64,000 nucleotides of DNA from a virus: the IMG/VR virus record IMGVR_UViG_3300044940_000489, positions 55,537 to 119,536 of that record, one strand, 5' to 3'. Shown here piece by piece: positions 12,126 through 64,000 of this stretch. The notes beneath the pieces are model-generated. The model did no database searches, was not told the DNA's origin, and saw only the letters and a list, made by a program, of their open reading frames with translations. Position 1 is the first letter of the stretch; the number at the start of each line of letters is the position of its first letter. A program made the translations under genes and the position numbers.

Positions 12126-12170
12126 CTGACATACTACCCCGCCTAAAGGCATGGGGTTTTTGGTTCTATC
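12126..12170 (-). mobile_element. 45-bp single-hairpin non-autonomous IS200/IS605 derivative (PATE-like)
   Basis: Minus strand reads TTAT|GATAGAACCAAAAACCCCATGCCTTTAGGCGGGGTAGTATGTCAG. It has the same left terminus, TTTA-loop hairpin and TGTCAG right terminus as the elements at 56326 and 57793, and the same left end as 63642. Confidence 0.8.
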
Positions 12171-12199
12171 ATAATACCAATAAAAAAACTAGTGGTCAA
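12171..12199 (-). promoter_or_regulatory. Sigma70-type promoter TTGACC-17-TATTAT with extended -10 TG
   Basis: Read on the minus strand upstream of the 12113 operon. Confidence 0.7.
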
Positions 12200-12283
12200 G
12201 GTTTATTCTTTTGCGTATTATTTTGATTCTATTTATTGCTTTTGGCGAAAAACTGCATAATAATGTGTTTATACGGAGGTATT

Positions 12284-12514
12284 ATGATTCAATTCATTAT
12301 AGACAAGCCACTGGCATTTATTGGAATAGTTATCTTGATCTGGGCCCTTATTAATATCTTTTACTTGTACTTTGCAAATAAAAAGACTGACGGAGGCGCA
12401 TCTTCGCTTATTAATAGATATATGACCTATAAGCTATTTAAAAGATACAATTCCAGGCAGTACGAGGAAATGACCAGAGATCTAAATACCAGAAAGTCTT
12501 ATGAAGAAGCGTAA
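12284..12514 (+). CDS. Small membrane protein leading into the QL mini-gene array
   Basis: GGAGGT RBS before ATG 12284; one TM helix; ends KSYEEA like the array units. Confidence 0.6.
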   Translation: MIQFIIDKPLAFIGIVILIWALINIFYLYFANKKTDGGASSLINRYMTYKLFKRYNSRQYEEMTRDLNTRKSYEEA

Positions 12515-12674
12515 GCAGATTAATGGATATTTGAGGAATCAGTTGACAAATCAGCTGTGGTATCGGTTGGGTGGACAGCTTTGGGGACAGTTGGGGAGGC
12601 AGTTGTGGGATCAGTTGTGGGATGAGTTAGGGCAGCCCCTTTATAGGGGCATTAAATATTATGAAGAAACGTAA
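12501..12674 (+). CDS. QLxx-repeat mini-protein 1 (57 aa)
   Basis: Hand-translated, not in the ORF track: MKKRKQINGYLRNQLTNQLWYRLGGQLWGQLGRQLWDQLWDELGQPLYRGIKYYEET. Confidence 0.65.
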   Translation: MKKRKQINGYLRNQLTNQLWYRLGGQLWGQLGRQLWDQLWDELGQPLYRGIKYYEET

Positions 12675-12774
12675 ACATGTTAATGGGCAGTTGTGGGATC
12701 AGTTGGGGAGTCAGTTTGGGGAGCAGTTGAGGTATCGGCTTTATAAAGGCATTAAGTATTATGAAGAAGCGTAG
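12661..12774 (+). CDS. QLxx-repeat mini-protein 2 (37 aa)
   Basis: Hand-translated: MKKRKHVNGQLWDQLGSQFGEQLRYRLYKGIKYYEEA. Confidence 0.65.
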   Translation: MKKRKHVNGQLWDQLGSQFGEQLRYRLYKGIKYYEEA

Positions 12775-12928
12775 GCATTTGAGGGATCGGTTGTGGTATC
12801 AGTTGAGGGATCAGTTGGGGGATCGGTTAGGTGGTCAGTTGTGGGGACAGTTGTGGGATCAGTTGCAGGTGCCGTTTTTGGGACAGTTGATGAATCAGCT
12901 TTATAAAGGTATTAAGTCTTATGAATAA
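12761..12928 (+). CDS. QLxx-repeat mini-protein 3 (55 aa)
   Basis: Hand-translated: MKKRRHLRDRLWYQLRDQLGDRLGGQLWGQLWDQLQVPFLGQLMNQLYKGIKSYE. Confidence 0.65.
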   Translation: MKKRRHLRDRLWYQLRDQLGDRLGGQLWGQLWDQLQVPFLGQLMNQLYKGIKSYE

Positions 12929-13106
12929 GCGTAGGCAGTTGAGGGATCGGTTGAGGGATCAGTTGAGGGATCGGTTGGGGGATCAGTTAGGTGTTCACTT
13001 GTGGGGACAGCTGTGGCATCAGTTGGGTGGACAGCTTTGGGGACAGTTTGGGGAGCAGTTGAGGCATCGGCTTTATAAAGGCATTAAGTATTATGAAGAA
13101 ACGTAA
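12921..13106 (+). CDS. QLxx-repeat mini-protein 4 (61 aa)
   Basis: ORF track; same MxKR...LYKGIKYYEET frame. Confidence 0.7.
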   Translation: MNKRRQLRDRLRDQLRDRLGDQLGVHLWGQLWHQLGGQLWGQFGEQLRHRLYKGIKYYEET

Positions 13107-13302
13107 GAAGATTGTTGGGCGGTTGGAGGATCAGTTGGGGTATCAGTTGGGGGATCAGTTGAGGGATCAGTTGTTGTCTCAGTTGAGGGATCAGTTGCGG
13201 AATCAGTTGTGGGGTCAGTTGGGGAATCAGTTGTGGCCTCAGTTGTGGGATCAGTTGAAGTATCGGCTTTATAAAGGCATTAAGTATTATGAAGAAACGT
13301 AA
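13093..13302 (+). CDS. QLxx-repeat mini-protein 5 (69 aa)
   Basis: ORF track; same architecture. Confidence 0.7.
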   Translation: MKKRKKIVGRLEDQLGYQLGDQLRDQLLSQLRDQLRNQLWGQLGNQLWPQLWDQLKYRLYKGIKYYEET

Positions 13303-13555: not shown

Positions 13556-13625
13556 TCAACATCCATATAAATAATACAGACCAATAAAGAATTGACAAAT
13601 ACAAAAAAATTAGTATTCTATACTT

Positions 13626-13734: not shown

Positions 13735-13772
13735 ATTGCCTAAATATCGTTTTTATGGCATACTTATAGCAC

Positions 13773-15398: not shown

Positions 15399-15426
15399 AT
15401 TATACCGATCTTGCGATCAATATTAA

Positions 15427-20199: not shown

Positions 20200-20487
20200 A
20201 TGGGATTGATATTTGGTAGCAGAAAGAAACTGATTGTTACACTGGCAGCACTCGTTCCTGCCGCTGCAATTGTTGATATGCTTCTTTTGAAATTGTTATT
20301 TGGTGAAGGGGTCGATAATTTTGCTAATGGCGTAATTATCGCTGGAGCTGTATTGGCAGTAGTAAATTCTACTGTATTGGGCATTATGAATCTAGTCGAG
20401 GCGAAGCGAGATGCGGATGCAATTAAAAGAGCTATGGAGCAGTCTTTTGAGGAAGACTACGAGTCGGATTCCGAGGAGACGGCCTAA
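20200..20487 (+). CDS. Two-TM membrane protein with acidic tail
   Basis: Two hydrophobic segments; behind cassette B. Confidence 0.6.
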   Translation: MGLIFGSRKKLIVTLAALVPAAAIVDMLLLKLLFGEGVDNFANGVIIAGAVLAVVNSTVLGIMNLVEAKRDADAIKRAMEQSFEEDYESDSEETA

Positions 20488-22322
20488 CGGTCTCCTCTTT
20501 GCTTTTTATACTCGTCGTAATCCTTACCTTTATATACAATTTTACTGCCTTCAAATCCGAATCCTGGCATTAAGACGGTTAGAATATCGCGACAATTGCT
20601 GGAAACAATGCCACGAGCCACAAAAGATGCGTCCTCTTCTACGGTTAGGCAATAGACTCTTCCATTGTTTCTAGTTCGGCCATATTTTATGGACAGTATT
20701 TTTGTTTCTTGAAATGAATATATTCCATCGTGATTGTTCAGTATATTTTGTATATCGGCAATAACTCTATCTTTTTTAATGTCCGAAGATTTTTTAAAGC
20801 CGTACCTTAATACGGACCAGCCTTGATTTTTAAGCCATGAGTCCCTGGCTTGATCTTTTGCTATCCTGTCTCCTTCATGGTATTTGCCATCTATCTCAAT
20901 TGCTATTTTATCCTCTACTAATGCTATATCTATGCAGTATCTGCCGACTTGATATTCCATTTCAACAGTTTTCTGTCTATAAAAATCTTTAATCCAAGAA
21001 TATACGTAACGCTGCTTTTTTGATATGCGAGTTGAGGCAGAGGCCTGCATCATCTGCGGCAATCTAGATATTAGTTTATCTCTTTGTTGCGCCCTTCTCT
21101 CTTCATTCCAATACTGTGACGCAAAATAAGACCTGGCACCATTTTCATATGCTTTTAAAATGCCCTGAGAGCAATTTGCCGCCCGAATACTTTTCTGTTC
21201 TATGGATAGCGTATCGTGGTAATGCTTGACTTGGGCACGCATCAGTTCATTGAAGCATGCCTGAGAGCATGTTTTGGACATTTCAAAGCCTACGGAATGC
21301 TTGAATTTGGTTTGCTTTCCACAAACCACACACGGATAATTCAACTGAATAAATTTATCTTCTTCCGTTAAATCTTTTGCTTCTATCCAGCCTCTCTGGG
21401 TTAAAAATTTATGGTCGGGAGTGACATGGTGTGCAAATCTTCTGCCATTATACTCATAATGAATTATCATGTTTTTTTTGTTGGTATATGGCTCATTAAT
21501 AACGCCCACAACTTTTTTAAATTTACCTGTATGCGTTAGTACCTTTTCTCCAACTTTAACATTTTTAATTGCCTTCCAGCCTGTCTCGGTTAAAACTGGC
21601 ATGCGCCCCTCTGTAAAACAATTGGGATGGGTCGGGCTTACGCTAGCATCTGGATTTTTCCAGTGTCCGGGACTGCCCGAAAGTTCACTCATCTTGTAGA
21701 CTTTAGGCGTAATTTTGTCTGGCATTGTCCAAAGGCGCCAGCAGATCCGGCAACGCTTTTCATCGAGTACGCCAATCTTAAAAACGACAGGGTCGTCGAT
21801 GCCAACCGATTTAGCTGCACCCAAAATGCCATCGAACGCACCTATATTTTGTGCATTATGAAGTTCATGGGTGACCAGAACGTCTGCAGCCTTCTTAATC
21901 TTGTCTCTTTGATCCTTTAATTCTTTTGAGATAGAAGCTAGGATCTTTTGTCCCTCTGGCTGCCTAATGTAATCTTCTGGCTTCTGATTCTTTATCTTAG
22001 CTTCTACGGTCAAATTGTCGATTTTTTCGCCAACAATCCTAGTAGTGTCTGCTATTGCTTTTTGCTCTAGGGCATCTATATACTTTTCTGCAATATCCTT
22101 AAGCTTGCTAATAGACTTATCATCTGGCCGCCCAGGCTTTATATCATTAACTGTATTGGCATGAGAATACAGATGCCCTATTGTAGTATTGGGATCAAAG
22201 TTCTTTAATAAAAACAAGAACTGAGTGGAAACTTTATCTGGTCCCAAAAGATGCATCTTAAGGGACGAGAACGTCTTCTTTATATTATCTTCTATTATTT
22301 TTTGTAGCTGCTTAGTCAGCAC
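20484..22322 (-). CDS. MuF/SPP1-gp7-like head morphogenesis protein containing an intein
   Basis: CRIC and THPN|CRD extein motifs; directly downstream of the portal. Confidence 0.8.
   Translation of the reverse strand: MLTKQLQKIIEDNIKKTFSSLKMHLLGPDKVSTQFLFLLKNFDPNTTIGHLYSHANTVNDIKPGRPDDKSISKLKDIAEKYIDALEQKAIADTTRIVGEKIDNLTVEAKIKNQKPEDYIRQPEGQKILASISKELKDQRDKIKKAADVLVTHELHNAQNIGAFDGILGAAKSVGIDDPVVFKIGVLDEKRCRICWRLWTMPDKITPKVYKMSELSGSPGHWKNPDASVSPTHPNCFTEGRMPVLTETGWKAIKNVKVGEKVLTHTGKFKKVVGVINEPYTNKKNMIIHYEYNGRRFAHHVTPDHKFLTQRGWIEAKDLTEEDKFIQLNYPCVVCGKQTKFKHSVGFEMSKTCSQACFNELMRAQVKHYHDTLSIEQKSIRAANCSQGILKAYENGARSYFASQYWNEERRAQQRDKLISRLPQMMQASASTRISKKQRYVYSWIKDFYRQKTVEMEYQVGRYCIDIALVEDKIAIEIDGKYHEGDRIAKDQARDSWLKNQGWSVLRYGFKKSSDIKKDRVIADIQNILNNHDGIYSFQETKILSIKYGRTRNNGRVYCLTVEEDASFVARGIVSSNCRDILTVLMPGFGFEGSKIVYKGKDYDEYKKQRGDR
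20595..21620 (-). mobile_element. Intein (342 aa) with DUF559/Vsr-like endonuclease
   Basis: Starts CFTEG..VLTETGW..IK.VKVGE.VLTHTG; block B VTPDHKFLT; EYQVGRYCIDIA...IAIEIDG.YH; ends VYCLTVEEDASF.A.GIVSSN|C. Confidence 0.9.
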
Positions 22323-22331: not shown

Positions 22332-24416
22332 CTAGTGGTTGTGACCTTCGTGCGGGTCCTTGCCTGTCAGAGCTTCTTCGATAGAATTAATCATGTCTTT
22401 CGACTGTTCGTCAAGTTCCTTAAGAATTTTAGCCTTAGCCAGCTTATGCTTTTTCAGCAGCTCTTTTCTTGTGACTGGCAACTTGGACTCTGACTTATTC
22501 AGACTTTCGCCCAGCTGTGCTATTGCAGAATCTAGATCTGATGACTCGTTTTCTTCTTGCTCTGGCTGCTGCTCTTGCTGCTGGGCACCTTGTTCTGGCT
22601 GTTGGGCCCCTTGCTGTTGCTGAAGTGCCGCCTGCTGCTGCATAGTAGCTTGTTGCATTTCGGCTTGCTTTTTCATGATGAAAACTTGAATGCTTGTTTG
22701 ATCGCCCATGCAATATGCAAGTTCTGGGTCCTGGTCGGCAGCTTTAAATTGTTCGCCGCCGAAAGCTTTTAAGATCTGGCCCTTAGTGTAATATTTTTCA
22801 AGAACCTGCAAATAAGCAGGATTCATTGGGAACTGGCCAGCCAATGGAACCGCGTCTTTTTCAACCCTCTCCATGATATCGTTCATGGAAAGATAGAGGG
22901 CCTGGTCCTGCTGAAGTCTAGTTGCTTCCTTTTCTGGAGAATCAGCGTCCAGCCCCTCTAAATCAATTCTTAGATATTTTGACCACTGTTCGTTAATTTT
23001 TGGCAAAAGACGCTCATTGAAAAAGTCTTCATAGAGCATAAGAAGCGGCCTTAGCCCAATGTCTCGGGCGGCCATAAGCTTCCACTCATTGTTGGATTCA
23101 GATAGAGACTGGCTATTGGTTCCGCGTGAAAGGTATGAAAGAGCCGCGACTTCGTCAGGAGACATCTGGTAGGCAGCGAAAATCATACGTTTATTCAAGT
23201 CGGCAAGGTACTGGAATTCCATATCCCTATTGCCGCCGTCTAGTGGCTGGATTTCTAGAGCATCGTCTACTCCCATTCCAAACACCGGAACACGCCATGC
23301 AGAGTTGACTGAATTTATATGGGCCTGCATTTGCAATTTAATATTGTCAATATCTTGCTTGCTCAAATCATTTGATTTAAAGATCATTACGTTTCTGGCA
23401 GCTCTGCCATTAACGAAATACATCTTATTATGAGAAGTTAAATTGATGTGGGTTGTAACGGCGGACAATATGCGCTCTACTGGGGATACTGGATATCCAT
23501 TTCGATTGATATCCGTAGAGGGATTCATATTCATAACTACAAGTTCTTCATCTGTAAAAACTTGTCGCGGAATTCCATCAATTACCTGAACCCAAGAATA
23601 TTCGTCTCTACTAAAACGGTCAACATCGACCAGAAGATTGCCCTCACCTTTAATTTTTTGTAAAAGTGCTCGGGCTTCTTTTCTAATATTAAGGGCTTCA
23701 GCAGACTCCCCGCGCTGCTTTTGAACTTGATGAATAGTAAGTGCATCGACTGATCGCCAACTGTGGAAGTCGCCTTTTCCGTCTTTTCGGATTTCTGCTG
23801 CGAATGAGCCGCCAAGCAATGCATCTTCGATTGTTGACATCAAGAATTGACCCAGCCCCTGTCGCTCCGTGTCTTTGAGACCATCTGTGCGGCCACAATT
23901 AACCATAAGCTCTCTTAGGGCCGGTATGGCTTCTTTTTTAAGTTCTTCAATTTGCTCTTTAGTAAGTTGTCGGACTGCTTCTGGCTTAATATTAACTGCA
24001 AATCCAACATCAAAGCGATTGGCTCTTGGCCGTGAAAACATTAGCATTTGGCGGGCCCGAACTGGCAATATAACGCCGCCAATCAATTCTTCGGTGTCCC
24101 TTAGCCTCTTGAGAATGTCTACAGGTATAAGATTTTGTCTTCTTCTGAAGATAGAGGAGAGATTCCCCTCTTGCTTATTGGGATCTACATCAAAACTAAG
24201 CTGCTGGGCGCTTTCAATGTCTCTAGATTTTTTTAGAACCTCTAGAATTGAAGCGATAGTATCACCGCCACCGTTTTGACGGATAGGCATCATAGTAATG
24301 AGTCCAGCTTTAATGCCGTCAGCGGATTCAGTTTTTTGTAAGTTTTCTTTCAGCAAGTCCTGAACTGCTTCGCGAATCAGTTCTGCTGAGATATCTTTTT
24401 TATTATTTTCAGACAT
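22332..24416 (-). CDS. Portal protein
   Basis: GYPVSPVE, N.MYF.NG, DMEFQ, AYQMSPDE and GLRPLL motifs; Gln-rich C-terminal linker. Confidence 0.85.
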   Translation of the reverse strand: MSENNKKDISAELIREAVQDLLKENLQKTESADGIKAGLITMMPIRQNGGGDTIASILEVLKKSRDIESAQQLSFDVDPNKQEGNLSSIFRRRQNLIPVDILKRLRDTEELIGGVILPVRARQMLMFSRPRANRFDVGFAVNIKPEAVRQLTKEQIEELKKEAIPALRELMVNCGRTDGLKDTERQGLGQFLMSTIEDALLGGSFAAEIRKDGKGDFHSWRSVDALTIHQVQKQRGESAEALNIRKEARALLQKIKGEGNLLVDVDRFSRDEYSWVQVIDGIPRQVFTDEELVVMNMNPSTDINRNGYPVSPVERILSAVTTHINLTSHNKMYFVNGRAARNVMIFKSNDLSKQDIDNIKLQMQAHINSVNSAWRVPVFGMGVDDALEIQPLDGGNRDMEFQYLADLNKRMIFAAYQMSPDEVAALSYLSRGTNSQSLSESNNEWKLMAARDIGLRPLLMLYEDFFNERLLPKINEQWSKYLRIDLEGLDADSPEKEATRLQQDQALYLSMNDIMERVEKDAVPLAGQFPMNPAYLQVLEKYYTKGQILKAFGGEQFKAADQDPELAYCMGDQTSIQVFIMKKQAEMQQATMQQQAALQQQQGAQQPEQGAQQQEQQPEQEENESSDLDSAIAQLGESLNKSESKLPVTRKELLKKHKLAKAKILKELDEQSKDMINSIEEALTGKDPHEGHNH

Positions 24417-36460: not shown

Positions 36461-36483
36461 AAACTTTTTAATAGGGGATAGCT

Positions 36484-36771
36484 ATGCTTATTAAATATAA
36501 ATGCAATCTTTGCGATAATGAAATTCAAAAGTATTTTCATAAAACTGATAAGCAGGCCAATTTTCTTAATTGCCAATGTGGTGGCGTTCTTGAGCGCCAA
36601 GTTCCAGATTTTGGAACAACTAGCCTAGAATACGTTGACAATGGAGTGTCTGCAAAAAGGGTGGAGCTAAGAAAAGATGCCGTGCTACGCGCAAAAGAGC
36701 GTGGCGATAAATATATTGAGGCTAAGGCTAATGCTGCTACAGTTTTAGGCAAAAAAGAAGGCCAAGACTGA
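36484..36771 (+). CDS. Zinc-ribbon (FmdB-like) protein
   Basis: YKCNLC...CQCGG.LER. Confidence 0.65.
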   Translation: MLIKYKCNLCDNEIQKYFHKTDKQANFLNCQCGGVLERQVPDFGTTSLEYVDNGVSAKRVELRKDAVLRAKERGDKYIEAKANAATVLGKKEGQD

Positions 36772-48269: not shown

Positions 48270-48278
48270 TAATATTCT
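48250..48278 (+). promoter_or_regulatory. Sigma70-type promoter TTGACT-17-TATTCT
   Basis: Upstream of the SSB-RecA genes. Confidence 0.6.
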
Positions 48279-54523: not shown

Positions 54524-55537
54524 GTGAATAAAATGTCTGTTAGCTCTAAAACCTCAAAATCGTTTAAAGTTAAAAAAATAACACAAATTAAAGACTTGCA
54601 GATAGGCGAAGATCTCCCCACTTCTGATCTGTGCATTACAAACGACGATACAATTCTTCAATTTGATTTTATTGAGCCCGAAGAGGACATGGTACCCAAA
54701 GTAACTGTAAAGCCCGGCGTATTCACTATACTTAAGAATTCTGTTGGCATTTCTTTGATACCTACAAAAATGGAAACGGGCAATGCTCTGGAATCAGTAG
54801 ATAATACGGCTCGAATAAAAAAAGAGCTGGAGAGTTTTTATGGCAAACTTCATATATATGAGGAACTTCAGCTGCCAAAGAAGCGAGCAATCTTGCTATA
54901 CGGTGAACCAGGAACAGGCAAAACCTTTTCTATCAAAAAAGCAGTGAACGACCTAATATCTCAAGATCCGGGGGTAACCGTTCTGATTTGGCCAACTTCC
55001 GAGATTAGCTCAGAGGTAGTTTCCAAATTTCTAAGCTTCGCCGCCGACTATACAAAAGACGTAACTAAGGTCGTTTTAATTATGGAAGATATCGGAGGAT
55101 CTGAAGAAGAGGTGTCAAGTCGGGTTCGCGAAGTAAGCTCCGGGATCTTGCAGCTTCTTGATGGAGTTAATGTAGTATTCAGATTGCCAACTTTTATTAT
55201 TGCAACGACTAATTTTCCGCAAAAACTGCTATCCAACCTGGCTGACAGGCCGGGACGGTTCGATGAGCTTATTGATATGCCACCTCCTCCACTGGAGCAA
55301 AAAATAGCTCTTTTAGAGTTTATTGCCAAAAGGCTACTTTCGGATGAAGAAAAAAATGCTCTTAAAATGAAGGGGGCAGACAAGCTCAGTATCGCCCACT
55401 TAAAAGAGATTATTGTCAGGACTAGAATTCATGACAAAACAATTAATCAAGTTGTTAAAGAAATGATTGAGCACAGGGCCAAGTTTGAAGCGGGGTTTGA
55501 AAAGCGACAAAAAATGGGCTTTTTTGACGAGGATTAA
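54524..55537 (+). CDS. Classic-clade AAA+ ATPase
   Basis: LLYGEPGTGKT, VLIMED, LDG, IATTN and RPGRFD. Confidence 0.9.
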   Translation: MNKMSVSSKTSKSFKVKKITQIKDLQIGEDLPTSDLCITNDDTILQFDFIEPEEDMVPKVTVKPGVFTILKNSVGISLIPTKMETGNALESVDNTARIKKELESFYGKLHIYEELQLPKKRAILLYGEPGTGKTFSIKKAVNDLISQDPGVTVLIWPTSEISSEVVSKFLSFAADYTKDVTKVVLIMEDIGGSEEEVSSRVREVSSGILQLLDGVNVVFRLPTFIIATTNFPQKLLSNLADRPGRFDELIDMPPPPLEQKIALLEFIAKRLLSDEEKNALKMKGADKLSIAHLKEIIVRTRIHDKTINQVVKEMIEHRAKFEAGFEKRQKMGFFDED

Positions 55538-56350
55538 ATGAGCACTATTAAAGCTTACACAGAAGAGAGCTTAATGAGCGGCATCGACGAGGCGCGGCGA
55601 AGAATATTCTTCGGAAAGCATCTCAGTGGAGATCCGGATGATACGACGGATTTTACGCAGGCTTCGGTAGAATTGGCAGTAAGAGCAATCCACAAAATGG
55701 CTTCAGACGCGCCGCATAAGCCAATAGAAATTCACATGAATTCCTATGGAGGCGACCCCACAGCCATGCTGTACCTCATGGACGTGATCCTTTCTTGTGC
55801 GTGCCAAATTAAATTTTTTGGTGGGGGCGCAATCGCAAGCTCAGCGACCTGGATTATGGCTGTATGCGATGAAAGGTACTTGTACCCAAATGCCATGATC
55901 TTAATTCACGCCGGTTCGAGTGCGCTTGAGGGCTCACATACTGATCTAGTCATTACCGTTGACAATGAAAAGAGACTGCAGGACCACTTAGAGTCCATAT
56001 ATGCCAATAATTCTAGAATGCCAAAAAGCTTCTGGCATGCAGTAGCTAAAAGGGACCTATGGCTGACGGCTGAGGAAACCATTGCACTGGGGCTGGCCGA
56101 TAAGCTTATTTTGCCCAAAAAGCGGGGGAACTTACGAAAAATAAGGCAGGCCCACTTAGGCCAAAAAAGCAATACGGCAAAAATGAAGAAATTAGTAGTT
56201 AAGTTGTTCGAGCGGATACAGCTGCCATTTGATGTGGAAAATATTACATTGAACGCACCTCCACAAGAGGAGGCCGATCCAAATGTGACCGTTGACTTGA
56301 CAGAGGCCGATAAATTGAGTATTATGATAGAACCAAAAGAAAACCCATGA
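55538..56350 (+). CDS. clpP: ClpP-like protease
   Basis: NSYGG, G.IASSA (Ser), LIH (His), RDLWLTAEE..LGLAD (Asp). Confidence 0.85.
   Translation: MSTIKAYTEESLMSGIDEARRRIFFGKHLSGDPDDTTDFTQASVELAVRAIHKMASDAPHKPIEIHMNSYGGDPTAMLYLMDVILSCACQIKFFGGGAIASSATWIMAVCDERYLYPNAMILIHAGSSALEGSHTDLVITVDNEKRLQDHLESIYANNSRMPKSFWHAVAKRDLWLTAEETIALGLADKLILPKKRGNLRKIRQAHLGQKSNTAKMKKLVVKLFERIQLPFDVENITLNAPPQEEADPNVTVDLTEADKLSIMIEPKENP
56297..56325 (+). promoter_or_regulatory. Sigma70-type promoter TTGACA-17-TATTAT
   Basis: Within the 3' end of clpP; abuts the left end of element 1. Confidence 0.7.
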
Positions 56351-56606
56351 CTTTAGTCGTGGGATGAATTTTTAAAAACTTAATAATATGTTAGTGGCGT
56401 TAATAAGTTTGGTGTAGTATAATATATAATGTGGTACTACCCATGATAGGGACATACTAGCAGCAAACAATATAAACAATTCGCATTAATGCGAACACTT
56501 GGTGGAGAGGGCAGCCTACCAAGTATAAATAAAGCCTGTGGAGCGATCAACGGTAGTTGGAGCAATGAAGCAGGAACCCCATGACTTTAGTCGTGGGAGC
56601 TGTCAG
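56326..56606 (+). mobile_element. Non-autonomous IS200/IS605 element 1 (281 bp; tnpB deleted, omegaRNA-like right end kept)
   Basis: Left end GATAGAAC plus CCCATGAC-TTTA-GTCGTGGG hairpin; tnpB remnant CGTTHDRDILAANNI (56430-56489); right-end hairpin plus AGCTGTCAG. Confidence 0.9.
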
Positions 56607-56629
56607 TGAAAATAATAAGGAGATTCCAG

Positions 56630-57181
56630 ATGGAAATAAACAGCAATAATTCCGAAGCTACAACACAATCTGATGCGCAGGCGACCACAGAGGTTACTGC
56701 AGCAAGTTCAGAGACTGCCACAGCGGCTACTGATACGGCTACCAATAAAACCGCTAGACAGATAAAAAATATTCGACGGAATCAAAAGAGATCACAAAAG
56801 GTGTGGTCTTTTTATATGCAAAAAGAGTCGAATCGAAGGCGCAAGCTCAAAACTCAATTAGAGGTACTTAGGGGCCAAATCGGCACTAAGAATTTTAAAC
56901 TACTTAAGACGTTGGCCACAACAGTCTCAGAGGCCACTAAAGACGAAAATGGCAATATAACTTCACCAGAATCTCGAAGCATTAATTATGAAATGCTCCT
57001 GAAAGAGGGGAAAAATTTAATTGTAATGCTAAGAGAAGAGCGCATGCGAGAAGGCAAGAGAAGCAGAAAGACCGGCACGTCTCGAAATAGGGCCCGCCAT
57101 AATTCTGCCTTCAGGTTCCTTTCTGCCAGAAACCTGGCGGCCTCGTCTGAGGAAGTGACTAAAACTGTAAAATCTGAATAA
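56630..57181 (+). CDS. Hypothetical basic protein with Thr/Ala-rich N-terminus
   Basis: Start re-called behind AAGGAG. Confidence 0.6.
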   Translation: MEINSNNSEATTQSDAQATTEVTAASSETATAATDTATNKTARQIKNIRRNQKRSQKVWSFYMQKESNRRRKLKTQLEVLRGQIGTKNFKLLKTLATTVSEATKDENGNITSPESRSINYEMLLKEGKNLIVMLREERMREGKRSRKTGTSRNRARHNSAFRFLSARNLAASSEEVTKTVKSE

Positions 57182-57441
57182 TGGGCCTGAGTTTCATAGC
57201 CATACCGATAATAGGCTCCGTAATCATGATGATTCTCGGGATCTCCTGGGAAGAGGCATTTTTACTTATGGGGCCCCTAATGTTAATCATTATTAGCCGC
57301 TATCTAACGACTAAAGCAATTGAAGAGCAGATTGCAGAAGAGCTTTCTGCCAAAAAATCTGAATGTCCGCCACACGAATGGCTCACTTCAGATGGAATAA
57401 TTAAATGCAAAAAATGCTTATTTAGAGTGGGTATCGACTAA
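57181..57441 (+). CDS. Two-TM protein with C-terminal Cys/His cluster
   Basis: CPPHEW...CKKC. Confidence 0.55.
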   Translation: MGLSFIAIPIIGSVIMMILGISWEEAFLLMGPLMLIIISRYLTTKAIEEQIAEELSAKKSECPPHEWLTSDGIIKCKKCLFRVGID

Positions 57442-57776
57442 TGTCTGAGCTTAAAAGCACCGGAATTAGGGTGTCTAAAGAATTCGCCGAGTCCTTGGCT
57501 CGGAAAATTAAAGATATACGGTACCGCTACGATATACCTCCTAATGCCCCTCTAATGAAGGGCAAGCTCTTTTGGGACGACGAAACGGTCTTAGAAATGG
57601 TAGTCTCTTCCGTAACCTCTGGCGGCCTCTTAACAGACGAAGACATGATTGGGGCCAGCCTTAATTTTGACCCAGCTTTTATAAAAGACGGTAAATACGA
57701 CAAATTAATACACGCCTGCTTAACCAAGCTGGCACAAATCGACTACAAACGCGAAACCAGCCTTGACTTCCATTAA
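57441..57776 (+). CDS. Hypothetical protein
   Basis: TAATG-coupled. Confidence 0.55.
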   Translation: MSELKSTGIRVSKEFAESLARKIKDIRYRYDIPPNAPLMKGKLFWDDETVLEMVVSSVTSGGLLTDEDMIGASLNFDPAFIKDGKYDKLIHACLTKLAQIDYKRETSLDFH

Positions 57777-57792
57777 TAAATAGTGCTATTAT
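57763..57792 (+). promoter_or_regulatory. Sigma70-type promoter TTGACT-18-TATTAT with extended -10 TG
   Basis: Abuts the left end of element 2. Confidence 0.65.
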
Positions 57793-58078
57793 GATAGAAC
57801 TAAAAGAAAGCCCATGCCTTTAGGCGTGGGATGAATTTTGAAACAAGGTAATATATAATAAGTTTCTTCAAAGTGATGTATAAATTAGTGACAGAGAACC
57901 AAATCACTAATTTATGCATTGAAGACAAAAGTCTTCAATATAATGAAGAATGTTGTATTAAAACAGAAACTTGGAGGAGAGGTCAGCCCTCCAAGTATAA
58001 ATAAAGCCTGTGGAGCGATCAACGGTAGTTGGAGCTATGAAGCAGGAACCCCATGACTTTAGTCGTGGGAGCTGTCAG
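57793..58078 (+). mobile_element. Non-autonomous IS200/IS605 element 2 (286 bp; tnpB deleted, omegaRNA-like right end kept)
   Basis: Same termini as element 1; internal YKLVTENQITNLCIED resembles TnpB RuvC-II; the last ~110 bp are nearly identical to element 1. Confidence 0.9.
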
Positions 58079-58084
58079 AGGGCT

Positions 58085-58972
58085 ATGTTTAATTTTAATA
58101 CGCCAGCAGCACTAAAGAAATTCCTGCGCAGAATAACATATATAAATACAGTGCTTTTCATAGTAGCCTCTATAATGATTCTTATGGCGCTTACTATGAA
58201 AACAGCTCATGGCGATGTCTGGCAGCACCGCCACTCTCCGCCTAAGCTCAGGCCAACTAAGGGGTCCATCACAGTAATGGTTGTTGATACTGGCGTAACG
58301 CCTAATAACCCCGTCATATCTCCATACTTGGTTAAGCCCGTTCAAATTCAAGATGTAGACACGCATGGCCATGGAACTCATGTAACGTCCCTAATTGTCG
58401 GGGGAGCCGGTACCATGAGAAAGGACGGGGAAGTTCATTTTAGTTCTTTGGTCTGCCCAGAAGTTCGCGTTATAGCCTGCAAATTTTATGATCCTAAAGC
58501 TATTACGAAAATTAATTTAGACAACAGCATTGCGTGTTTCCAGAAGGCTTTGGAGCTTAATGTAGATATAGTTAACTACTCGGCTGGCGGACCGGATTCC
58601 CTAGAGGAAGAGAGACTGGCTATAGAAAAGCTTCAGGAGAATGACATAATATTGGTAACTGCAGCGGGAAACGAGGGGTCAGATCTTAAAATATATCCAT
58701 ATTACCCAGCTAATTATCAATTAAAAAATATGGTAATAGTTGGGGCCTTGGGCCTCCCACCTAACAAGTTTAATGCGTATCAAAGATTTAAAAGCTCTAA
58801 TTTCGGAATATTTGGAATGTATTGGGAAATAGGCGAAGCAGTTTTGGGGTATAACCACTTGAACAAGCCGCAGTACATGACCGGAACATCTCAGGCCACC
58901 GCTTTAGCCACTAACCGCATACTAAGGCAAAGATGCGAGGAAATGAAACAGAAAGACAAAAAGGAGAAATAA
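58085..58972 (+). CDS. S8 subtilase with N-terminal TM/signal
   Basis: VVDTG, HGHGTHV, AAGN and GTSQAT. The ORF-track start (58010) lies inside element 2, so the start is re-called to MFNF. Confidence 0.9.
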   Translation: MFNFNTPAALKKFLRRITYINTVLFIVASIMILMALTMKTAHGDVWQHRHSPPKLRPTKGSITVMVVDTGVTPNNPVISPYLVKPVQIQDVDTHGHGTHVTSLIVGGAGTMRKDGEVHFSSLVCPEVRVIACKFYDPKAITKINLDNSIACFQKALELNVDIVNYSAGGPDSLEEERLAIEKLQENDIILVTAAGNEGSDLKIYPYYPANYQLKNMVIVGALGLPPNKFNAYQRFKSSNFGIFGMYWEIGEAVLGYNHLNKPQYMTGTSQATALATNRILRQRCEEMKQKDKKEK

Positions 58973-58973
58973 A

Positions 58974-59285
58974 GTGAACTACTTCGATAATGATATGCTA
59001 GCCGGTTTGGTTGTGGCCGCTTCTGCAGCCTTATTATTGGGCAAATGGATGCTTTTGGGGACCTTTATGAGGGAGATCCGAAGTCTCCGTTTTCTTAATG
59101 ATTCAGCCACGATGTCCGCATCATTAAGAATGGATGATATTGATACGGAGATTGACAAATTGAAGGCAGACATTGTATTATTAAAAAATCAACAAAGGAG
59201 CAATAATGAGTCATCCGGCGCACAATCCAAGTCAAAGCCTAGAGCATCTGGCTCTGGAAATCGCAAAAGCAAAAGCAGAAATTGA
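58974..59285 (+). CDS. TM plus coiled-coil hypothetical protein
   Basis: AAGGAG RBS with GTG start. Confidence 0.55.
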   Translation: MNYFDNDMLAGLVVAASAALLLGKWMLLGTFMREIRSLRFLNDSATMSASLRMDDIDTEIDKLKADIVLLKNQQRSNNESSGAQSKSKPRASGSGNRKSKSRN

Positions 59286-59571
59286 TTCTATGCGGCCTCT
59301 GTATGAAAAGCTTGACGCCCTCACGCTACAGTTTCGAGAGCTGGCTGGCGAGCAAGAAGTGTTAGTTCCGGACACCATAGTAGACTTGCCGGGGAGACCC
59401 TCTATCTCGGTTCCGGCACAGTTCATTAAAGTAGTAGATAATTTTATGGACAAAAATGTAGTTTTCCGTCCAGCCGCAGTTAGAAGATTTGAAGTGAATA
59501 CGGAGACCGAGATTCAACGCAAACTAAAAGTAGCAAAAGCTGCAAAAAAGCTAGAAAATGCTAAGATCTGA
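59206..59571 (+). CDS. Hypothetical protein
   Basis: AAGGAG RBS. Confidence 0.6.
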   Translation: MSHPAHNPSQSLEHLALEIAKAKAEIDSMRPLYEKLDALTLQFRELAGEQEVLVPDTIVDLPGRPSISVPAQFIKVVDNFMDKNVVFRPAAVRRFEVNTETEIQRKLKVAKAAKKLENAKI

Positions 59572-59923
59572 CGCCGAATATTTTATGAATAATTGGGACA
59601 AAAATGTCTCAAAGGTTTTTAGATGGCGGCGTCCCTTTGTGCCAGACGAGTATTTAGCTTTTTTTATAGATGAAAAAAATAGGTATAAGGTTAACGAATC
59701 GGTTTCAACTAAAACCATGAAGAGCCTTGATAAAAACGAAATGATTACATTGCTGGTAAGTGAAGAGCTGTATTTCATGAAAAATTATGATTTCTATTGC
59801 AATCTTTTGGAAATGAAAACTGGTGGATGCACATGTGGTGCATGGGCTCTTCCAGGATATGAAAATCTGCATAACAATCAATGCAATTTAAGATATAAAA
59901 ACTTAACGGAGGTGAAGAAATGA
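59558..59923 (+). CDS. Hypothetical protein with CTCG...H...C cluster
   Basis: Possible metal-binding tail. Confidence 0.55.
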   Translation: MLRSDAEYFMNNWDKNVSKVFRWRRPFVPDEYLAFFIDEKNRYKVNESVSTKTMKSLDKNEMITLLVSEELYFMKNYDFYCNLLEMKTGGCTCGAWALPGYENLHNNQCNLRYKNLTEVKK

Positions 59924-60345
59924 AAGCCATAGTTTGGGTTGGCCTCAATCCTTCGCCCAAGAACACGACTCCAGAGACTGCTTTTGTAGGGTCTCCTAGC
60001 GGCAAAAACTTGGCCAAGTGGCAAGTTGAAGTAGACAAAAAAGTAAAAAGCCCCCTGCATCATAAAATGTATAATCTTTGTACAGTCGTCAGTTCTAGTG
60101 AGCGAGCTATTTCGCAAGAAATGGCAGACGTAGGGGCGATTGCCAGGATTTTGAAGCATTACAGAAATAATGACACAATCGTTGCGCTCGGCAATAAGGC
60201 CTCTAAGATACTCTTGGCAAACAATATCCCACACATTAAAATGCCTCATCCAAGTCCCGCAAATAGGCAGCTAAACAACCATGTTTTTATAAAAAATAAA
60301 CTAAAATATTTAAAAAATAATATTATGGGGAGTAAATTAAAATGA
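59920..60345 (+). CDS. Uracil-DNA glycosylase-like fold protein
   Basis: VWVGLNPS, F.G.PSG..L, IVALG..A and MPHPSPAN. Confidence 0.75.
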   Translation: MKAIVWVGLNPSPKNTTPETAFVGSPSGKNLAKWQVEVDKKVKSPLHHKMYNLCTVVSSSERAISQEMADVGAIARILKHYRNNDTIVALGNKASKILLANNIPHIKMPHPSPANRQLNNHVFIKNKLKYLKNNIMGSKLK

Positions 60346-60578
60346 AAAGATACAGAGTAATATGGAGTGTACAGACTAACGAATTCGTTGTACCAGAATT
60401 AATGGCTAAGCCCATCGGAAGCAACGAGGCATCCTTTGTTGATTTCGATGATCTGGATGAGGCGAGAGCCTTCCAAAAGGGTATCCGTGCGCTCTCCGAT
60501 AGATATGGCCAGATATATGGCATGTCTAAATTTATAGTAAACAATGGCCCATTGATAATTGATAGATTAGGCGAATAA
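60342..60578 (+). CDS. Hypothetical protein
   Basis: Coupled ORF. Confidence 0.5.
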   Translation: MKRYRVIWSVQTNEFVVPELMAKPIGSNEASFVDFDDLDEARAFQKGIRALSDRYGQIYGMSKFIVNNGPLIIDRLGE

Positions 60579-60599
60579 ACCTAGATCGGTAAATACAAA

Positions 60600-61064
60600 A
60601 TGAGATTGCCGCTGGTTTTGCATCCTGATCCAAGACTTTTAATAAAAAGTACGCCAATTGAGGCGGCCAAGATTGCGCATGAAGTGGCGTTTGTCAGAGA
60701 TTTGGTAGAAACGATGATTTATGAGGGGGGCATTGGCATATCGGCCCCTCAAGTTGGACGAAATGTACAAATAATAGCTATATCTACGATTCAATCGGAC
60801 CCCAAGCACGGGATTCCAGCAACGGTAATGTTTAACCCAGAAATCACTTATTGCTCTGATAAAAAGAGCGTTTTCGATGAAGGATGCCTGTCATTTCCTG
60901 GGGAGTCCTGCCAAGTCACAAGAAGTTCATTAATACGCGTTAAATTTTTTGACTCGAATGGCAATTTGAGACATAATACATATGTAGGCATCACCGCTAT
61001 CTGTATTCAGCACGAGATCGACCATTTGCAAGGCATAACCATGAAAATGCGATCTAATAAATAA
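60600..61064 (+). CDS. def: Peptide deformylase
   Basis: GIGISAPQVG, EGCLS and QHEIDH. Confidence 0.95.
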   Translation: MRLPLVLHPDPRLLIKSTPIEAAKIAHEVAFVRDLVETMIYEGGIGISAPQVGRNVQIIAISTIQSDPKHGIPATVMFNPEITYCSDKKSVFDEGCLSFPGESCQVTRSSLIRVKFFDSNGNLRHNTYVGITAICIQHEIDHLQGITMKMRSNK

Positions 61065-61079
61065 TAGAAAGGACATGAT

Positions 61080-61472
61080 ATGTCTGACCAAACATCCGCT
61101 AAACGATCTGAGATTCTAACGCCAGTAGCTGGATTGTCCGTTTGGGAACTGACCCCAGATATGAAGCAGACACTGAGCGACCTGTCTAAAGAAGTATTTG
61201 GCAACAGCAGAGCCTGGGAAAAACTAATCAAAAAGGGCGAGCTGATCCAGGATACTGAAAATAAAAAAGCAAAGCGATGGGTTCCGCTAACCTTGGAAGA
61301 AGTCGCCACTAGGATGTTTATTATTAAAGAGCAAAGAGACTTGGAAGCCAAAATGGCGTCGGAGTCAGAAAAACAAGGAGAATCGAATGCTCAATCTAAT
61401 CAAGAAGTCGGCAGCAGCGCTGGCGATGATGGCACTGCTAGTTCCACAGTTGAGTCGGGCTCAGCTGACTGA
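61080..61472 (+). CDS. Hypothetical protein
   Basis: AAGGA RBS. Confidence 0.55.
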   Translation: MSDQTSAKRSEILTPVAGLSVWELTPDMKQTLSDLSKEVFGNSRAWEKLIKKGELIQDTENKKAKRWVPLTLEEVATRMFIIKEQRDLEAKMASESEKQGESNAQSNQEVGSSAGDDGTASSTVESGSAD

Positions 61473-61815
61473 AATTACTAATGCCAACGCAGAATCAATA
61501 CTAAAGCAGTCCAAGACTCTGGTACTGGTCTTGTTTTATGCCGATTTCTGCGGCTACTGCAAACAACTCGAAGCAGAACTGGTAAAGAGGCAGCCGCAGC
61601 TTAGCGGTAAGCTTCTGCTCGCAAAAGTAGATATCGTTTCCAATGGTATTGGGCTGCCAGCCGTACCCGTACTAGTTCTTTTTGATGGCGGATCGGCGGT
61701 TGATTCAGTAGTCGGGTTTAACCTTGAAGAAACGGATCGCCTGATTGCGCTGGCCACTAAAAGAGGAACAATTCCGCTTAGGCCTTCGCCAAACGCCAAA
61801 GAGGCAAGAAAATAG
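61387..61815 (+). CDS. Thioredoxin with signal peptide
   Basis: FYADFCGYC, AVP; N-terminal signal ending SRA. Confidence 0.8.
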   Translation: MLNLIKKSAAALAMMALLVPQLSRAQLTEITNANAESILKQSKTLVLVLFYADFCGYCKQLEAELVKRQPQLSGKLLLAKVDIVSNGIGLPAVPVLVLFDGGSAVDSVVGFNLEETDRLIALATKRGTIPLRPSPNAKEARK

Positions 61816-61818
61816 TAT

Positions 61819-62022
61819 ATGTGCATCATCTGCGTCGAGTTAGACAAGGAACGCATGACTAAAAACGAGGCCCTTCGCGCCATAGGAGAGCTATCTATGT
61901 CAGATAAGAATGACACAGAGCATTTGGAAGAGCTAAAGTCTTCACTAGAAGGCGCCCCTGAGCTTCCTCAGGGGTCTGGCGAGCTTTATGATAAGCTGCG
62001 GGCGGTTTGGCGAGGAATGTAG
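61819..62022 (+). CDS. Hypothetical protein (MCIIC)
   Basis: Co-oriented ORF. Confidence 0.5.
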   Translation: MCIICVELDKERMTKNEALRAIGELSMSDKNDTEHLEELKSSLEGAPELPQGSGELYDKLRAVWRGM

Positions 62023-62030
62023 GTGGGGCC

Positions 62031-63035
62031 ATGTTTGACTTTGGATTTGGGGACTCTCCTGGCATAAGGTCACTGCTTAAGTCAATTCGCGGCAGTGGAA
62101 GAGTAGAGCTGGAAATTTCAGATCTATATTATCAACATAAAACTGGCAACGCACTGCTAGTCACTCATTTAAAAACACTGATTAGCAGATTTGCTGGTAA
62201 ATGCTATGACCACGTATTCGTTACCGCAGGTGCAGAGCACGCCATAAATACTTTGCTTAGAGCCCTTCGGCCAACGCTAACTAAAATAAAAAACACTAAT
62301 TTAACTGCTATCTCTTTTGAGTCCCCCTATTTCAGTCACTACGCCGATATGGCCGAAAGAGCCGGATATTTTCGCATAAGTGGCAGCTTGCCGGGCCTTG
62401 ATTACATTCGCCTTATTGATTCCCCATCTAACCCAGAGGGCAAAATCAGAGCCGATGATGGATCGGCCAGCACTATGGCCAAATATGTAATTTGGGATGG
62501 GGTTTATCATAATGACATTTACTGTAAAAACTTATATTTTAAGCCAGCTCATGATTTTTATGTAGGAAGCATTGGCAAGATGCTGGGCATACCTGGCATT
62601 CGATTGGGTTGGATTGCTTTCGATAATACTGTCAATAAAATCACTAAAAAGCCTGCGGACATTGCAATAGCCCACGAGATCTACTCTGAAACTTTAGGAG
62701 TTAGCGGAGCCTCCCAGATTGCTGCTATAAAAATTATTTCTGAGACGAACATGGATTGCTTCTTTAAGAACGCGGCCTCAACTGTGGACTCCAATAGAGA
62801 GCTTATGACGGGTCTGGAATATCTATCCGGGACAAAAGTTCCGGATAATGGGATGTTCTTTTATATGCAAACAGATAGCTCAATACGTGAGCTTTTTGAC
62901 AGGGTTGGGGTCACTTACATACCGGGCGAACAAATAGGAAGTACTGAGGATTTTATTAGGCTAAATTTGGCTCAAACAAATGATCTTACAAAGAAAATGG
63001 TAATGGCCATTAGATCGGCGGATCGTAAATGCTAA
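62031..63035 (+). CDS. PLP-dependent class I/II aminotransferase-like protein
   Basis: TAGA, SPSNPEG, WDGVY and SIGKMLGIPGIRLGW; start re-called to MFDF. Confidence 0.85.
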   Translation: MFDFGFGDSPGIRSLLKSIRGSGRVELEISDLYYQHKTGNALLVTHLKTLISRFAGKCYDHVFVTAGAEHAINTLLRALRPTLTKIKNTNLTAISFESPYFSHYADMAERAGYFRISGSLPGLDYIRLIDSPSNPEGKIRADDGSASTMAKYVIWDGVYHNDIYCKNLYFKPAHDFYVGSIGKMLGIPGIRLGWIAFDNTVNKITKKPADIAIAHEIYSETLGVSGASQIAAIKIISETNMDCFFKNAASTVDSNRELMTGLEYLSGTKVPDNGMFFYMQTDSSIRELFDRVGVTYIPGEQIGSTEDFIRLNLAQTNDLTKKMVMAIRSADRKC

Positions 63036-63358
63036 CTAGACTATCAATGATGGTAATCTTTTTTGTGACAGTATTAATTTTAGCGCTTAATATTCTTATG
63101 GTTACGCATTTAACTACAAAAACCGTCTACGATATGGACCATATAAGAGCGCAGCACGAAGAAGATATACGGAGCACAATAATGACATCTTGCATATACG
63201 GAACCAAATACAAACCAGAAGTAGCTGCCCCAAGCAAATATTGGGACGAAAATAGCAACGTATACTACTGCAATGAATTTATGAAACGGCAGATGGAAAA
63301 TAATTACCCAGCCATGGTCATGAGACTGGGGCAGGGCAGAAAGAGAGACAGGAAATGA
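63029..63358 (+). CDS. Membrane-anchored hypothetical protein
   Basis: N-terminal TM helix. Confidence 0.55.
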   Translation: MLTRLSMMVIFFVTVLILALNILMVTHLTTKTVYDMDHIRAQHEEDIRSTIMTSCIYGTKYKPEVAAPSKYWDENSNVYYCNEFMKRQMENNYPAMVMRLGQGRKRDRK

Positions 63359-63618
63359 TTGCACCAAAAGTTATTTTTAAGCTCATCCTGGTATGCGCAG
63401 AGCCTCATGTCGAAAATCTGACTAACGTGTGGACTCCACAGGATGAGCTGGAATTTGGCAAGGCAAAAATCGAGTGCTCGGTTCTAGCGGATACCCCATG
63501 TTTAGGGGTCTTCACCAAGACTTTGGACGGCAAGTACGACAAAACCTGCATTAAAAAAAGCCTATTTCAGTACGAATCATACGAAGTGCAGGAATTGCCC
63601 CCTGGATTTAAGAATTGA
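63355..63618 (+). CDS. Cys-containing hypothetical protein
   Basis: ATGA-coupled. Confidence 0.5.
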   Translation: MIAPKVIFKLILVCAEPHVENLTNVWTPQDELEFGKAKIECSVLADTPCLGVFTKTLDGKYDKTCIKKSLFQYESYEVQELPPGFKN

Positions 63619-63641
63619 TGATTAAGATCAATCTAATTTAT

Positions 63642-64000
63642 GATAGAACTAAAAGAAAACCCATGGCTTTAGTCGTGGGATGAATTTTGAAAAAATATAA
63701 TGATATAATAGTGGTGCTAATAAGTTTGGTGTAGTATAATATATATGATTAGATCGTATAAATATAGAATTTATCCAAATAAAGAGCAAGCCCAAAAACT
63801 AGAGCAGTTTTTTGGGACTACACGTTTTATTTATAATTGGGGTTTGGAACAAAAAACCAAACAATATCAACAAGATAAGGCAAATCTATCTTGTTTTGAT
63901 TTAATTAAAAAATTAACAAAACTTAAAAAACAAGAAGAATTTAGATGGTTAAAGGATGTTTATTCACAAAGTTTGCAAGCATCTTTGAGAAATTTGGATA
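63642..64000 (+). mobile_element. IS1341-type (tnpB-first) IS200/IS605 element 3, truncated by the window edge
   Basis: TTAT|GATAGAAC left end and CCCATGGC-TTTA-GTCGTGGG hairpin; shares TAATAAGTTTGGTGTAGTATAATATATA with element 1; no tnpA between the left end and tnpB. Confidence 0.9.
63745..64000 (+). CDS. tnpB: TnpB RNA-guided nuclease, N-terminal part
   Basis: Not in the ORF track. Hand-translated MIRSYKYRIYPNKEQAQKLEQFFGTTRFIYNWGL...LTKLKKQEEFRWLKDVYSQSLQASLRNLD. Confidence 0.92.
   Translation, partial: MIRSYKYRIYPNKEQAQKLEQFFGTTRFIYNWGLEQKTKQYQQDKANLSCFDLIKKLTKLKKQEEFRWLKDVYSQSLQASLRNLD

Follow-up and report, generated by a model that had tools for sequence, protein, structure and literature searches.

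Elements of one IS200/IS605-type family in a phage record

We analyzed a family of IS200/IS605-type transposable elements in a 64,000-base stretch of viral DNA (the window), which comprises bases 55537–119536 of the linear, 119,536-base virus record IMGVR_UViG_3300044940_000489 (42.5% G+C; estimated completeness 74%). The genes are typical of a large tailed phage, with terminase-like and HNH-like open reading frames (ORFs) and long operons on alternating strands, and near-identical DNA is present in hot-spring and microbial-mat metagenome runs, with no RNA run among those listed. Five of the family's insertions are located at predicted promoters, and this association is non-random in this genome.

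A total of nine copies were recognized in the record by reading the sequence and by an all-against-genome BLAST search, with copies A–D in the window and copies E–I elsewhere in the record. The hairpin CCCATGnCTTTAGnCGTGGG occurs 12 times in the window, as compared to an expectation of 0.01. The left end reads GATAGAAC (TATAAGGTC in two copies), followed by the hairpin, and the right end consists of the hairpin followed by AGCTGTCAG. The hairpins are imperfect and subterminal at both ends, with no terminal inverted repeats; in B and C, CCCATGnCTTTAGnCGTGGG is found close to each end, and in D it is found at the left end. The tetranucleotide TTAT directly precedes all nine left ends (ATTAT in four, TTTAT in five), and the flanks show no target duplication. 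Thus, the first-pass annotation was right to describe the elements as of the IS200/IS605 type, inserting 3' of a short motif. The hairpins, the target motif and the TnpB protein all agree with membership in this group, whereas a Y1 (HUH) TnpA was not found in the record. The copies are as follows (positions are those of the window unless the record is named).

Copy A: 12126–12170, minus strand; 45-bp solo-hairpin remnant with the left-end start GATAGAACC, one decayed hairpin (3 mismatches) and the right-end finish TGTCAG
Copy B: 56326–56606, plus strand; 281-bp gene-less mini-element with the left end, the 103-nt tnpB leader, the 3'-terminal part of tnpB and the right end
Copy C: 57793–58078, plus strand; 286-bp gene-less mini-element of a second type, with a middle unlike that of B and the same right-end block
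Copy D: 63642–64000, plus strand; full-length element, truncated where the record ends, with the left-end hairpin at 63660–63679, TATAAT at 63735–63740 and the tnpB ATG at 63745
Copy E: record 20477–20762, plus strand; second-type mini-element
Copy F: record 35282–35567, plus strand; second-type mini-element
Copy G: record 30531–30222, minus strand; first-type mini-element
Copy H: record 30107–30062, minus strand; solo hairpin
Copy I: record 37639–36371, minus strand; full tnpB, no left hairpin
Right-end block of B: 56497–56606, plus strand; 110 nt, ending in GGGAGCTGTCAG
Putative guide flank of B: 56607–56626, plus strand; spans the 5' untranslated region and the Shine-Dalgarno region of the gene that follows, whose ATG is at 56630
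Putative guide flank of C: 58079–58098, plus strand; includes the ATG (58085) with which the protease-like gene downstream starts

The gene-less mini-elements span 281–310 bp and the solo hairpins about 45 bp. The 103-nt tnpB leader is kept in B and G (first type), while C, E and F have a different middle (second type); according to BLAST, copy C is 95–97% identical to two copies outside the window. Copy G is the most decayed mini-element, with 86% identity to B, mismatches in its left hairpin and an expanded 7-nt repeat. In this copy, at about 30399–30437 of the record, a 7-nt unit (ATATATA/TATATAA) is expanded about fivefold where full copies have the tnpB start codon.

The right-end block is 93–99% identical in the other copies that have it and is presumed to be the scaffold of the guide RNA (omegaRNA), although an Rfam search of 55500–64000, with the block included, gave no match. 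Copies B and C contain no protein gene and keep both ends and the putative scaffold, as do palindrome-associated transposable elements (PATEs) and other omegaRNA-only mini-elements, whereas copy A has no scaffold. By analogy with IS200/IS605 TnpB systems, as described in passages of Meers et al. (PMC10055086), the flanks of B and C would be used as guides.

Independent single contigs of run X1 bridge the junctions of B, C and D with no differences (55147–56363, 56578–57831, 58050–59485 and 59887–63871), and an assembly chimera was therefore rejected. One contig of run X10 joins 56325 to 56607, omitting exactly the 281 bases of B. The joint is weak (side 20, depth 2.7), and thus an empty-site allele of B in another sample is hinted at and the exact boundaries of B receive weak support. 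In run X1, the depth over the elements was 100–600 as compared to about 8.6 for the backbone, so the family is abundant elsewhere in that community.

Promoter-like sites at the element junctions

Sites were scored by the number of matches, out of 12, to the sigma-70-type hexamers TTGACA (-35) and TATAAT (-10) at a spacing of 16–18 nt. The strong Shine-Dalgarno sequences of the phage point to a host that uses canonical translation signals. The motif strings that the first-pass annotation had read at the edges of A, B and C are exact in the sequence.

Promoter-like site at A: 12171–12199, minus strand; TTGACC-17-TATTAT, 10/12, with TGn before the -10 box; the last T adjoins A
Promoter-like site at B: 56297–56325, plus strand; TTGACA-17-TATTAT, 11/12, in the last codons of the ORF at 55538–56350; the last T adjoins B
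Promoter-like site at C: 57763–57792, plus strand; TTGACT-18-TATTAT, 10/12, with an extended -10 TG; the last T adjoins C
Site across the D junction: 63615–63644, plus strand; TTGATG-18-TAT/GAT, 9/12
Unoccupied site: 59152–59181, plus strand; TTGACA-18-TATTAT, 11/12, followed by AAAGGAG-N6-ATG; the only good unoccupied site of this type

Outside the window, copy E directly follows TTGGCA-18-TATTAT (10/12, TGG before the -10 box) in a divergent intergenic region, and copy F starts 4 nt after TTGACT-18-TAGAAT (10/12). Thus, A, B, C, E and F follow hexamers of the sigma-70 type at the appropriate spacing, which we refer to as predicted promoters. Nothing comparable is located upstream of D, G, H and I. 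The string across the D junction, read earlier as a promoter created by the insertion, is exact, but such 9/12 sites are at chance level: the 10 kb that hold D contain 31 sites of at least 9/12 as compared to 23.2 ± 4.8 in shuffled sequences. It is no evidence for a promoter link.

Several features suggest that the sites act as promoters. Those of A, C and E have the extended -10 TG, and at A and E divergent operons must start; copy A lies between a gene on the minus strand (11829–12113) and one on the plus strand (12236–12514). The TATTAT class as such looks promoter-like, since the unoccupied site at 59152–59181 precedes AAAGGAG-N6-ATG. Furthermore, the hexamers most enriched after TTGAC and 16–18 nt include TATTAT (5 as compared to 0.57 expected) and TATTCT (4 as compared to 0.33), which suggests a real promoter class TTGACn-17/18-TATT[A/C]T in this phage. 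Sites of the form TTGAC(A/T/C)-16/17-TATTCT are located at 13592–13619, 48250–48278, 51666–51694 and, on the minus strand, 23595–23623; they contain no TTAT and carry no element. That the promoter might be part of the element was considered and rejected, as the spacers are unrelated.

All five promoter-linked insertions are on the non-template strand, four after position -7 and one after -3. In each of these cases, the stretch from the -10 box to the start codon contains a single TTAT, the one used, and the exact position can therefore not tell targeting from selection. At the promoter-like site of C, the stop codon of the ORF at 57441–57776 lies 17 nt upstream. In the reconstructed empty alleles, a mere 6 nt at C and 12 nt at A separate the -10 box from the ATG, so that these promoters would give leaderless or nearly leaderless mRNAs, which is an oddity. 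The orientation of the elements tracks the local gene strand through several switches (+,-,+,-,-,+ along the record), and no copy is antisense to both of its neighbouring genes.

The promoter association exceeds chance

Sites of the form TTGACN-16..19-TATTAT on either strand number five in the whole record, and three of these are directly followed by an element. After removal of the elements in silico, the record contains 1518 TTAT sites, of which seven fit a -35 hexamer with at most one mismatch to TTGACA, 16–18 nt and TATTAT. Four of the seven are occupied (A, B, C and E), which for eight events corresponds to a hypergeometric p of 1e-8. The events number eight, as H and I have the same 115-nt left flank and were counted as one. 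The thresholds were set after the data had been seen, and all of these values refer to eight events in one genome.

The enrichment also persists when intergenic location is controlled for, which was one of the points on which the first-pass annotation had staked its claim. Among TTAT sites in non-coding DNA and ORF tails, a score of at least 10/12 was obtained at four of the eight independent occupied sites as compared to two of 246 unoccupied sites (Fisher p = 6e-6). A narrower set of 103 non-coding sites co-oriented with the downstream gene includes four promoter-like sites, which hold three of six insertions (p = 4.4e-4); copy B is excluded from this set, being dropped by a spurious ORF in a crude ORF call. 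With TATTAT as the target, 50 sites remain in non-coding DNA and ORF tails, six of them promoter-like, and all four insertions are among those six (p = 6.5e-5). Of the six promoter-like sites with an available TTAT, five are occupied, as compared to three of about 99 other co-oriented non-coding sites. The -35 match is confined to the 16–18 nt spacing; eight further spacing windows do not show it, except for explained cases at B, F and G. The earlier statement that the hits on well-spaced promoters look non-random therefore stands.

Two other explanations bear on these numbers. The first is coincidence combined with post hoc criteria, given that TATTAT is common in AT-rich intergenic DNA and TTGAC-like hexamers arise by chance. 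Sites of at least 9/12 are indeed no commoner than in shuffled sequences (31 as compared to 23.2 ± 4.8, and 17 as compared to 14.7 ± 3.9), the events are just eight from one metagenomic record, and a threshold-free Mann-Whitney rank test is weak (p = 0.07) because the other four occupied sites, half of the independent events, score 4–7. However, coincidence is hard to reconcile with the contrast of 4/8 to 2/246 at 10/12 or better, with the specificity of the spacing control, with the extended -10 TG in A, C and E and the correct orientation and position upstream of genes, or with junctions that are read with no differences in single, independently assembled contigs. We consider it improbable.

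The second is that the transposase recognizes a longer target, TATTAT or GTATTAT, and that such sites are mostly promoters. Four junctions do read TATTAT, three of them with a G two or three bases further upstream, but the other five read ATTTAT or TTTTAT, and a near-identical left end in the IMG/VR contigs L005 and L006 follows TTTAC. Moreover, only six of the 50 TATTAT sites have a good -35 hexamer, and it is among these six that all four TATTAT insertions are found. This explanation is thus very unlikely.

TnpB is intact and no transposase gene was found

The only complete TnpB, encoded by copy I (396 amino acids; record 36393–37583, minus strand), contains the domains PF12323, PF01385 and PF07282 (helix-turn-helix, OrfB_IS605 RuvC and zinc ribbon), all above the cut-off, and matches the ISDra2 TnpB structures at 6e-66 (PDB 8BF8, 8EX9 and 8H1J). 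Alignment with 24 homologues shows no variation at D186, E272 and D353 or at the cysteines of the zinc ribbon. With the catalytic D-E-D residues kept, the protein is expected to be a cutting, homing nuclease rather than a TldR-like silencer. In contrast, no match to the Y1 transposase domain PF01797 was obtained across the 119,536-base record, which is 74% complete, while the controls were positive. Mobilization would therefore occur in trans, with the transposase encoded either by the host or in the quarter of the phage genome that the record lacks.

These results bear on the earlier proposal that TnpB binding alone could silence the genes of a rival phage, as TldR proteins do. TldR proteins lack the RuvC catalytic residues. 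In favour of the proposal, the guides would cover -10-proximal 5' regions of genes in an empty allele. On the other hand, the catalytic residues and zinc-ribbon cysteines are kept, all three TnpB Pfam domains are present and the match to ISDra2 is strong, and we therefore regard use of a dead nuclease in this manner as scarcely credible. That the guides point at transcription start regions, as stated earlier, is a plain consequence of the position of the elements.

A perfect TATAAT is located 4 nt before the tnpB ATG (63735–63747; also 56417–56430), with no Shine-Dalgarno sequence, which suggests that the tnpB mRNA is leaderless; no -35 hexamer was found. The left-end hairpin was flagged as terminator-like by a scanner, but its T-run begins 5 nt past the stem; it folds at -12.6 to -16.4 kcal/mol.

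Related elements in other genomes

The first-pass annotation had extended insertion at the -10 edge to the family at large. The pattern is found at A, B, C and E in this record, but four of the nine copies are not at promoters, and at none of five related-element junctions does a promoter of at least 10/12 end within 8 nt (best 9/12). The association thus holds for the TTAT-using copies of this phage and not for the family at large. The five junctions are the following.

Contig L006, full copy: after TTTAC
Contig L006, mini-element: after CTTAAT
Locus L130: after TTAC
Locus L223: boundary uncertain
Geobacillus virus E3: after TTTAT

For relatives with a TTAC target the pattern is impossible, since a functional -10 box cannot finish in these four bases. 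We also inspected the DNA upstream of the elements in three phages: Geobacillus virus E3, where the boundary was clear, and an Alicyclobacillus phage and Microcystis phage Mic1, where it was uncertain. In searches of public data, the left-end pattern was found at four viral loci and one metagenome locus, the right-end pattern at one and the scaffold motif at four, one of which is a true mini-element (L223). The hairpin alone was found at 120 or more loci in bacteria and archaea, most of them right ends, and these were left out of the promoter test. Closer TnpB homologues (P0001–P0013) are 83–91% identical. Another 80 viral TnpB loci are 43–53% identical; the family hairpin is present in only two of 76 that were scanned, and their left ends are heterogeneous, many with TAnnTTTG-type motifs, which we take to be promoters of the Bacteroidota type.

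Contigs L005 and L006 represent distant relatives of the phage, with proteins 33–41% identical and syntenic with 1573–12680 of the record. Their TnpB element, 84% identical, occupies another site, where it follows TTTAC, and they also contain a mini-element. Loose contig ends from runs X1, X9 and X11 display other left-end contexts (after a terminator-like hairpin, after TTAC), with no visible TTGAC among those listed; being low-agreement consensus fragments, they are anecdotal.

Possible causes: retention of transcribed copies or targeted insertion

Targeted insertion and preferential survival are not separable from the sequence alone. We tentatively favour, as the leading candidate rather than an established one, an excess that stems from the survival and spread of transcribed copies over one that stems from the targeting of single-stranded DNA. 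Insertion would then be near random among the TTAT sites exposed as single strands. Because TATTAT holds the target TTAT, an insertion there would fall between the -10 box and the transcription start and spare both the -35 and the -10 hexamer. Transcription would start some 7 nt inside the left end and pass through the hairpin and the scaffold into the guide flank. A promoterless mini-element would yield the omegaRNA with its flank-derived guide strongly and early only from a position immediately downstream of a host-type promoter. The empty allele would be cut by TnpB acting in trans, and recombination with the occupied copy would restore or spread the insertion (homing), both after excision and in co-infections, while silent copies would decay. 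While the anatomy, the TTAT rule, the enrichment and the intact TnpB motifs are shown, we infer that the promoters are active, that the omegaRNA functions as such, and that homing and a filter in the population take place.

Retention is favoured by the dependence on element type. All three second-type mini-elements (C, E and F), which do not have the tnpB leader, are at promoters, as is one of the two first-type mini-elements (B but not G), whereas neither of the two full-length copies is (D weak, I none). Furthermore, the mini-element that is not at a promoter, G, is the most decayed one, the TnpB motifs are intact, and an empty allele of B is hinted at in another sample. The published passages on PATE-like elements in PMC10055086 describe that these encode omegaRNAs used in trans and that TnpB cleaves empty donor joints.

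Several observations weigh against retention. Co-oriented sites inside operons are also transcribed, yet, per site, the promoter-adjacent sites are occupied about 30-fold more often than the approximately 99 other co-oriented non-coding TTAT sites. Copy A, which has no scaffold, fits only if its scaffold was lost after insertion by recombination between its two hairpins. The pattern by element type rests on nine copies and was noticed after the fact. Finally, no plus-strand site of 9/12 or better was found inside B, C or the tnpB leader; with no such site in the leader either, the distinction between copies with a promoter of their own and copies with none is itself something that we infer.

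The alternative is that TTAT-specific Y1/TnpA transposition is directed to DNA melted by RNA polymerase, at the -7/-6 step of TATTAT on the non-template strand. The Y1 transposase needs single-stranded DNA, and the TTAT in the -10 and discriminator region of a strong promoter would more often be single-stranded; possible sources are the open complex, melting behind the departing polymerase and forks stalled at promoter-bound polymerase. All five insertions are indeed within the region melted in the open complex (-11 to +2) on the non-template strand, and the near-saturation of promoter-like sites (5/6 as compared to 3/~99) is easily explained by a bias in rate. The need for a correctly spaced -35 hexamer implicates RNA polymerase, and an orientation that follows transcription through strand switches does not fit a simple rule based on the direction of replication. 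IS608 favours highly transcribed rrn genes and protein-blocked forks according to passages of PMC5027513.

However, targeting meets obstacles of its own. In the stable open complex, the non-template -10 bases are bound by sigma inside the polymerase, and access for the transposase looks poor. A fork stalled by polymerase would expose the edge of the footprint rather than position -7. The dependence on element type (3/3 leaderless mini-elements as compared to 0/2 full-length copies) is not predicted, the good site at 59152–59181 is empty, and none of the five related junctions is at a promoter, though three of them use TTAC or TAAT-type flanks. None of the papers listed in a literature search linked IS605 with the transcription bubble. 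Taken together, we regard targeting as possible but doubtful, and lean towards retention of transcribed copies.

Comparison with known systems

In all but the missing tnpA, the elements are typical of IS200/IS605, with an ISDra2-like TnpB and PATE-like mini-elements. The target motif of ISDra2 is TTGAT. The family shares with ISDra2-type elements the TnpB domains, subterminal hairpins at both ends, the lack of inverted repeats and target duplication, and insertion 3' of a short motif. It differs in that TTAT is both the target and the transposon-adjacent motif (TAM), in that the record has no tnpA, in the phage host and in that half of the copies are at -10 boxes. TldR proteins likewise use RNA guides at promoter-proximal DNA but are without the catalytic residues that this TnpB keeps. 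The yeast retrotransposon Ty3 integrates at the transcription start sites of Pol III and thus also lies within a few bases of a transcription start; it is tethered by transcription factors, and with its unrelated mechanism and lineage it provides an analogy only.

The PATE-like elements of Geobacillus stearothermophilus (Meers et al., PMC10055086) are also gene-less, keep both ends and the guide-RNA region, and are served by TnpA and TnpB in trans. The passages of that paper give no promoter link, whereas the family described here comprises two deletion types and 45-bp solo hairpins. For IS608 (Lavatine et al. 2016, PMC5027513), the passages link an insertion bias of this single-strand transposon to transcription and DNA-bound proteins. 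That bias is regional and acts via the lagging-strand template at blocked forks, whereas here an exact -7/-6 step is used and the orientation follows transcription.

Rearranged copies and neighbouring genes

The left flank common to H and I is a segment of about 115 nt (TAAATA..TACCTAAATTTAATGC...CCTAATTTTTAT) that is duplicated at 30108–30221 and 37640–37754 of the record (about -25428 to -25315 and about -17896 to -17782 in window numbering). Both segments have a right end (..GCTGTCAG) on the left side and a left end on the right, which belongs to copy H in one case and to the hairpin-less copy I in the other. This suggests a composite piece moved by recombination. Just upstream of the tnpB copy that lacks its own left hairpin (copy I), at 37755–37793 of the record, is a near-perfect palindrome, CTGACATGCTCCCACGCCTAAAGGCATGGGAGCTGTCAG, equal to one hairpin with right-end termini facing both ways.

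The ORF at 55538–56350 is prohead-protease-like, with a match to the PHROG for head maturation protease. The left end of copy B supplies its last eight codons and the stop (56324–56350); in the empty allele, the protease-like frame would extend 14 codons into the start region of the next gene. The protein encoded downstream of copy B has no relatives among the viral contigs searched, and a megablast search of 55500–58200 against deposited phages gave no match. A 532-amino-acid ORF at 13773–15371 matches HNH and homing endonuclease PHROGs at 1e-75 and represents a second kind of selfish nuclease in the phage. At 58944–58975, contigs of runs X9, X10 and X11 match over a mere 30 nt or so, beyond which they depart from the window in the same way on either side, with raised depth; this stretch looks like a short sequence common to another abundant genome.

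Implications

IS200/IS605 elements and their TnpB nucleases are among the most abundant genes known, and the ancestors of Cas12. Their landing sites are currently explained by replication, through the lagging-strand template and stalled forks. Our literature search found no report of IS200/IS605 insertion at -10 boxes; supplementary lists of insertion sites might bear on this point. In the one genome analyzed here, a quantitative, position-exact link between IS200/IS605 elements and sigma-70-type promoters in a phage is new. For annotation, it means that, of the six best predicted promoter sites with an available TTAT, five would now direct transcription into a transposon leader.

If insertion were targeted, transcription would provide a second source of target DNA, previously undescribed for IS200/IS605, and each guide-RNA cassette would automatically receive a promoter. 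If instead transcribed copies are retained, mini-elements would persist only where they are transcribed, and the pattern would constitute direct population-level evidence for homing by TnpB in phages.

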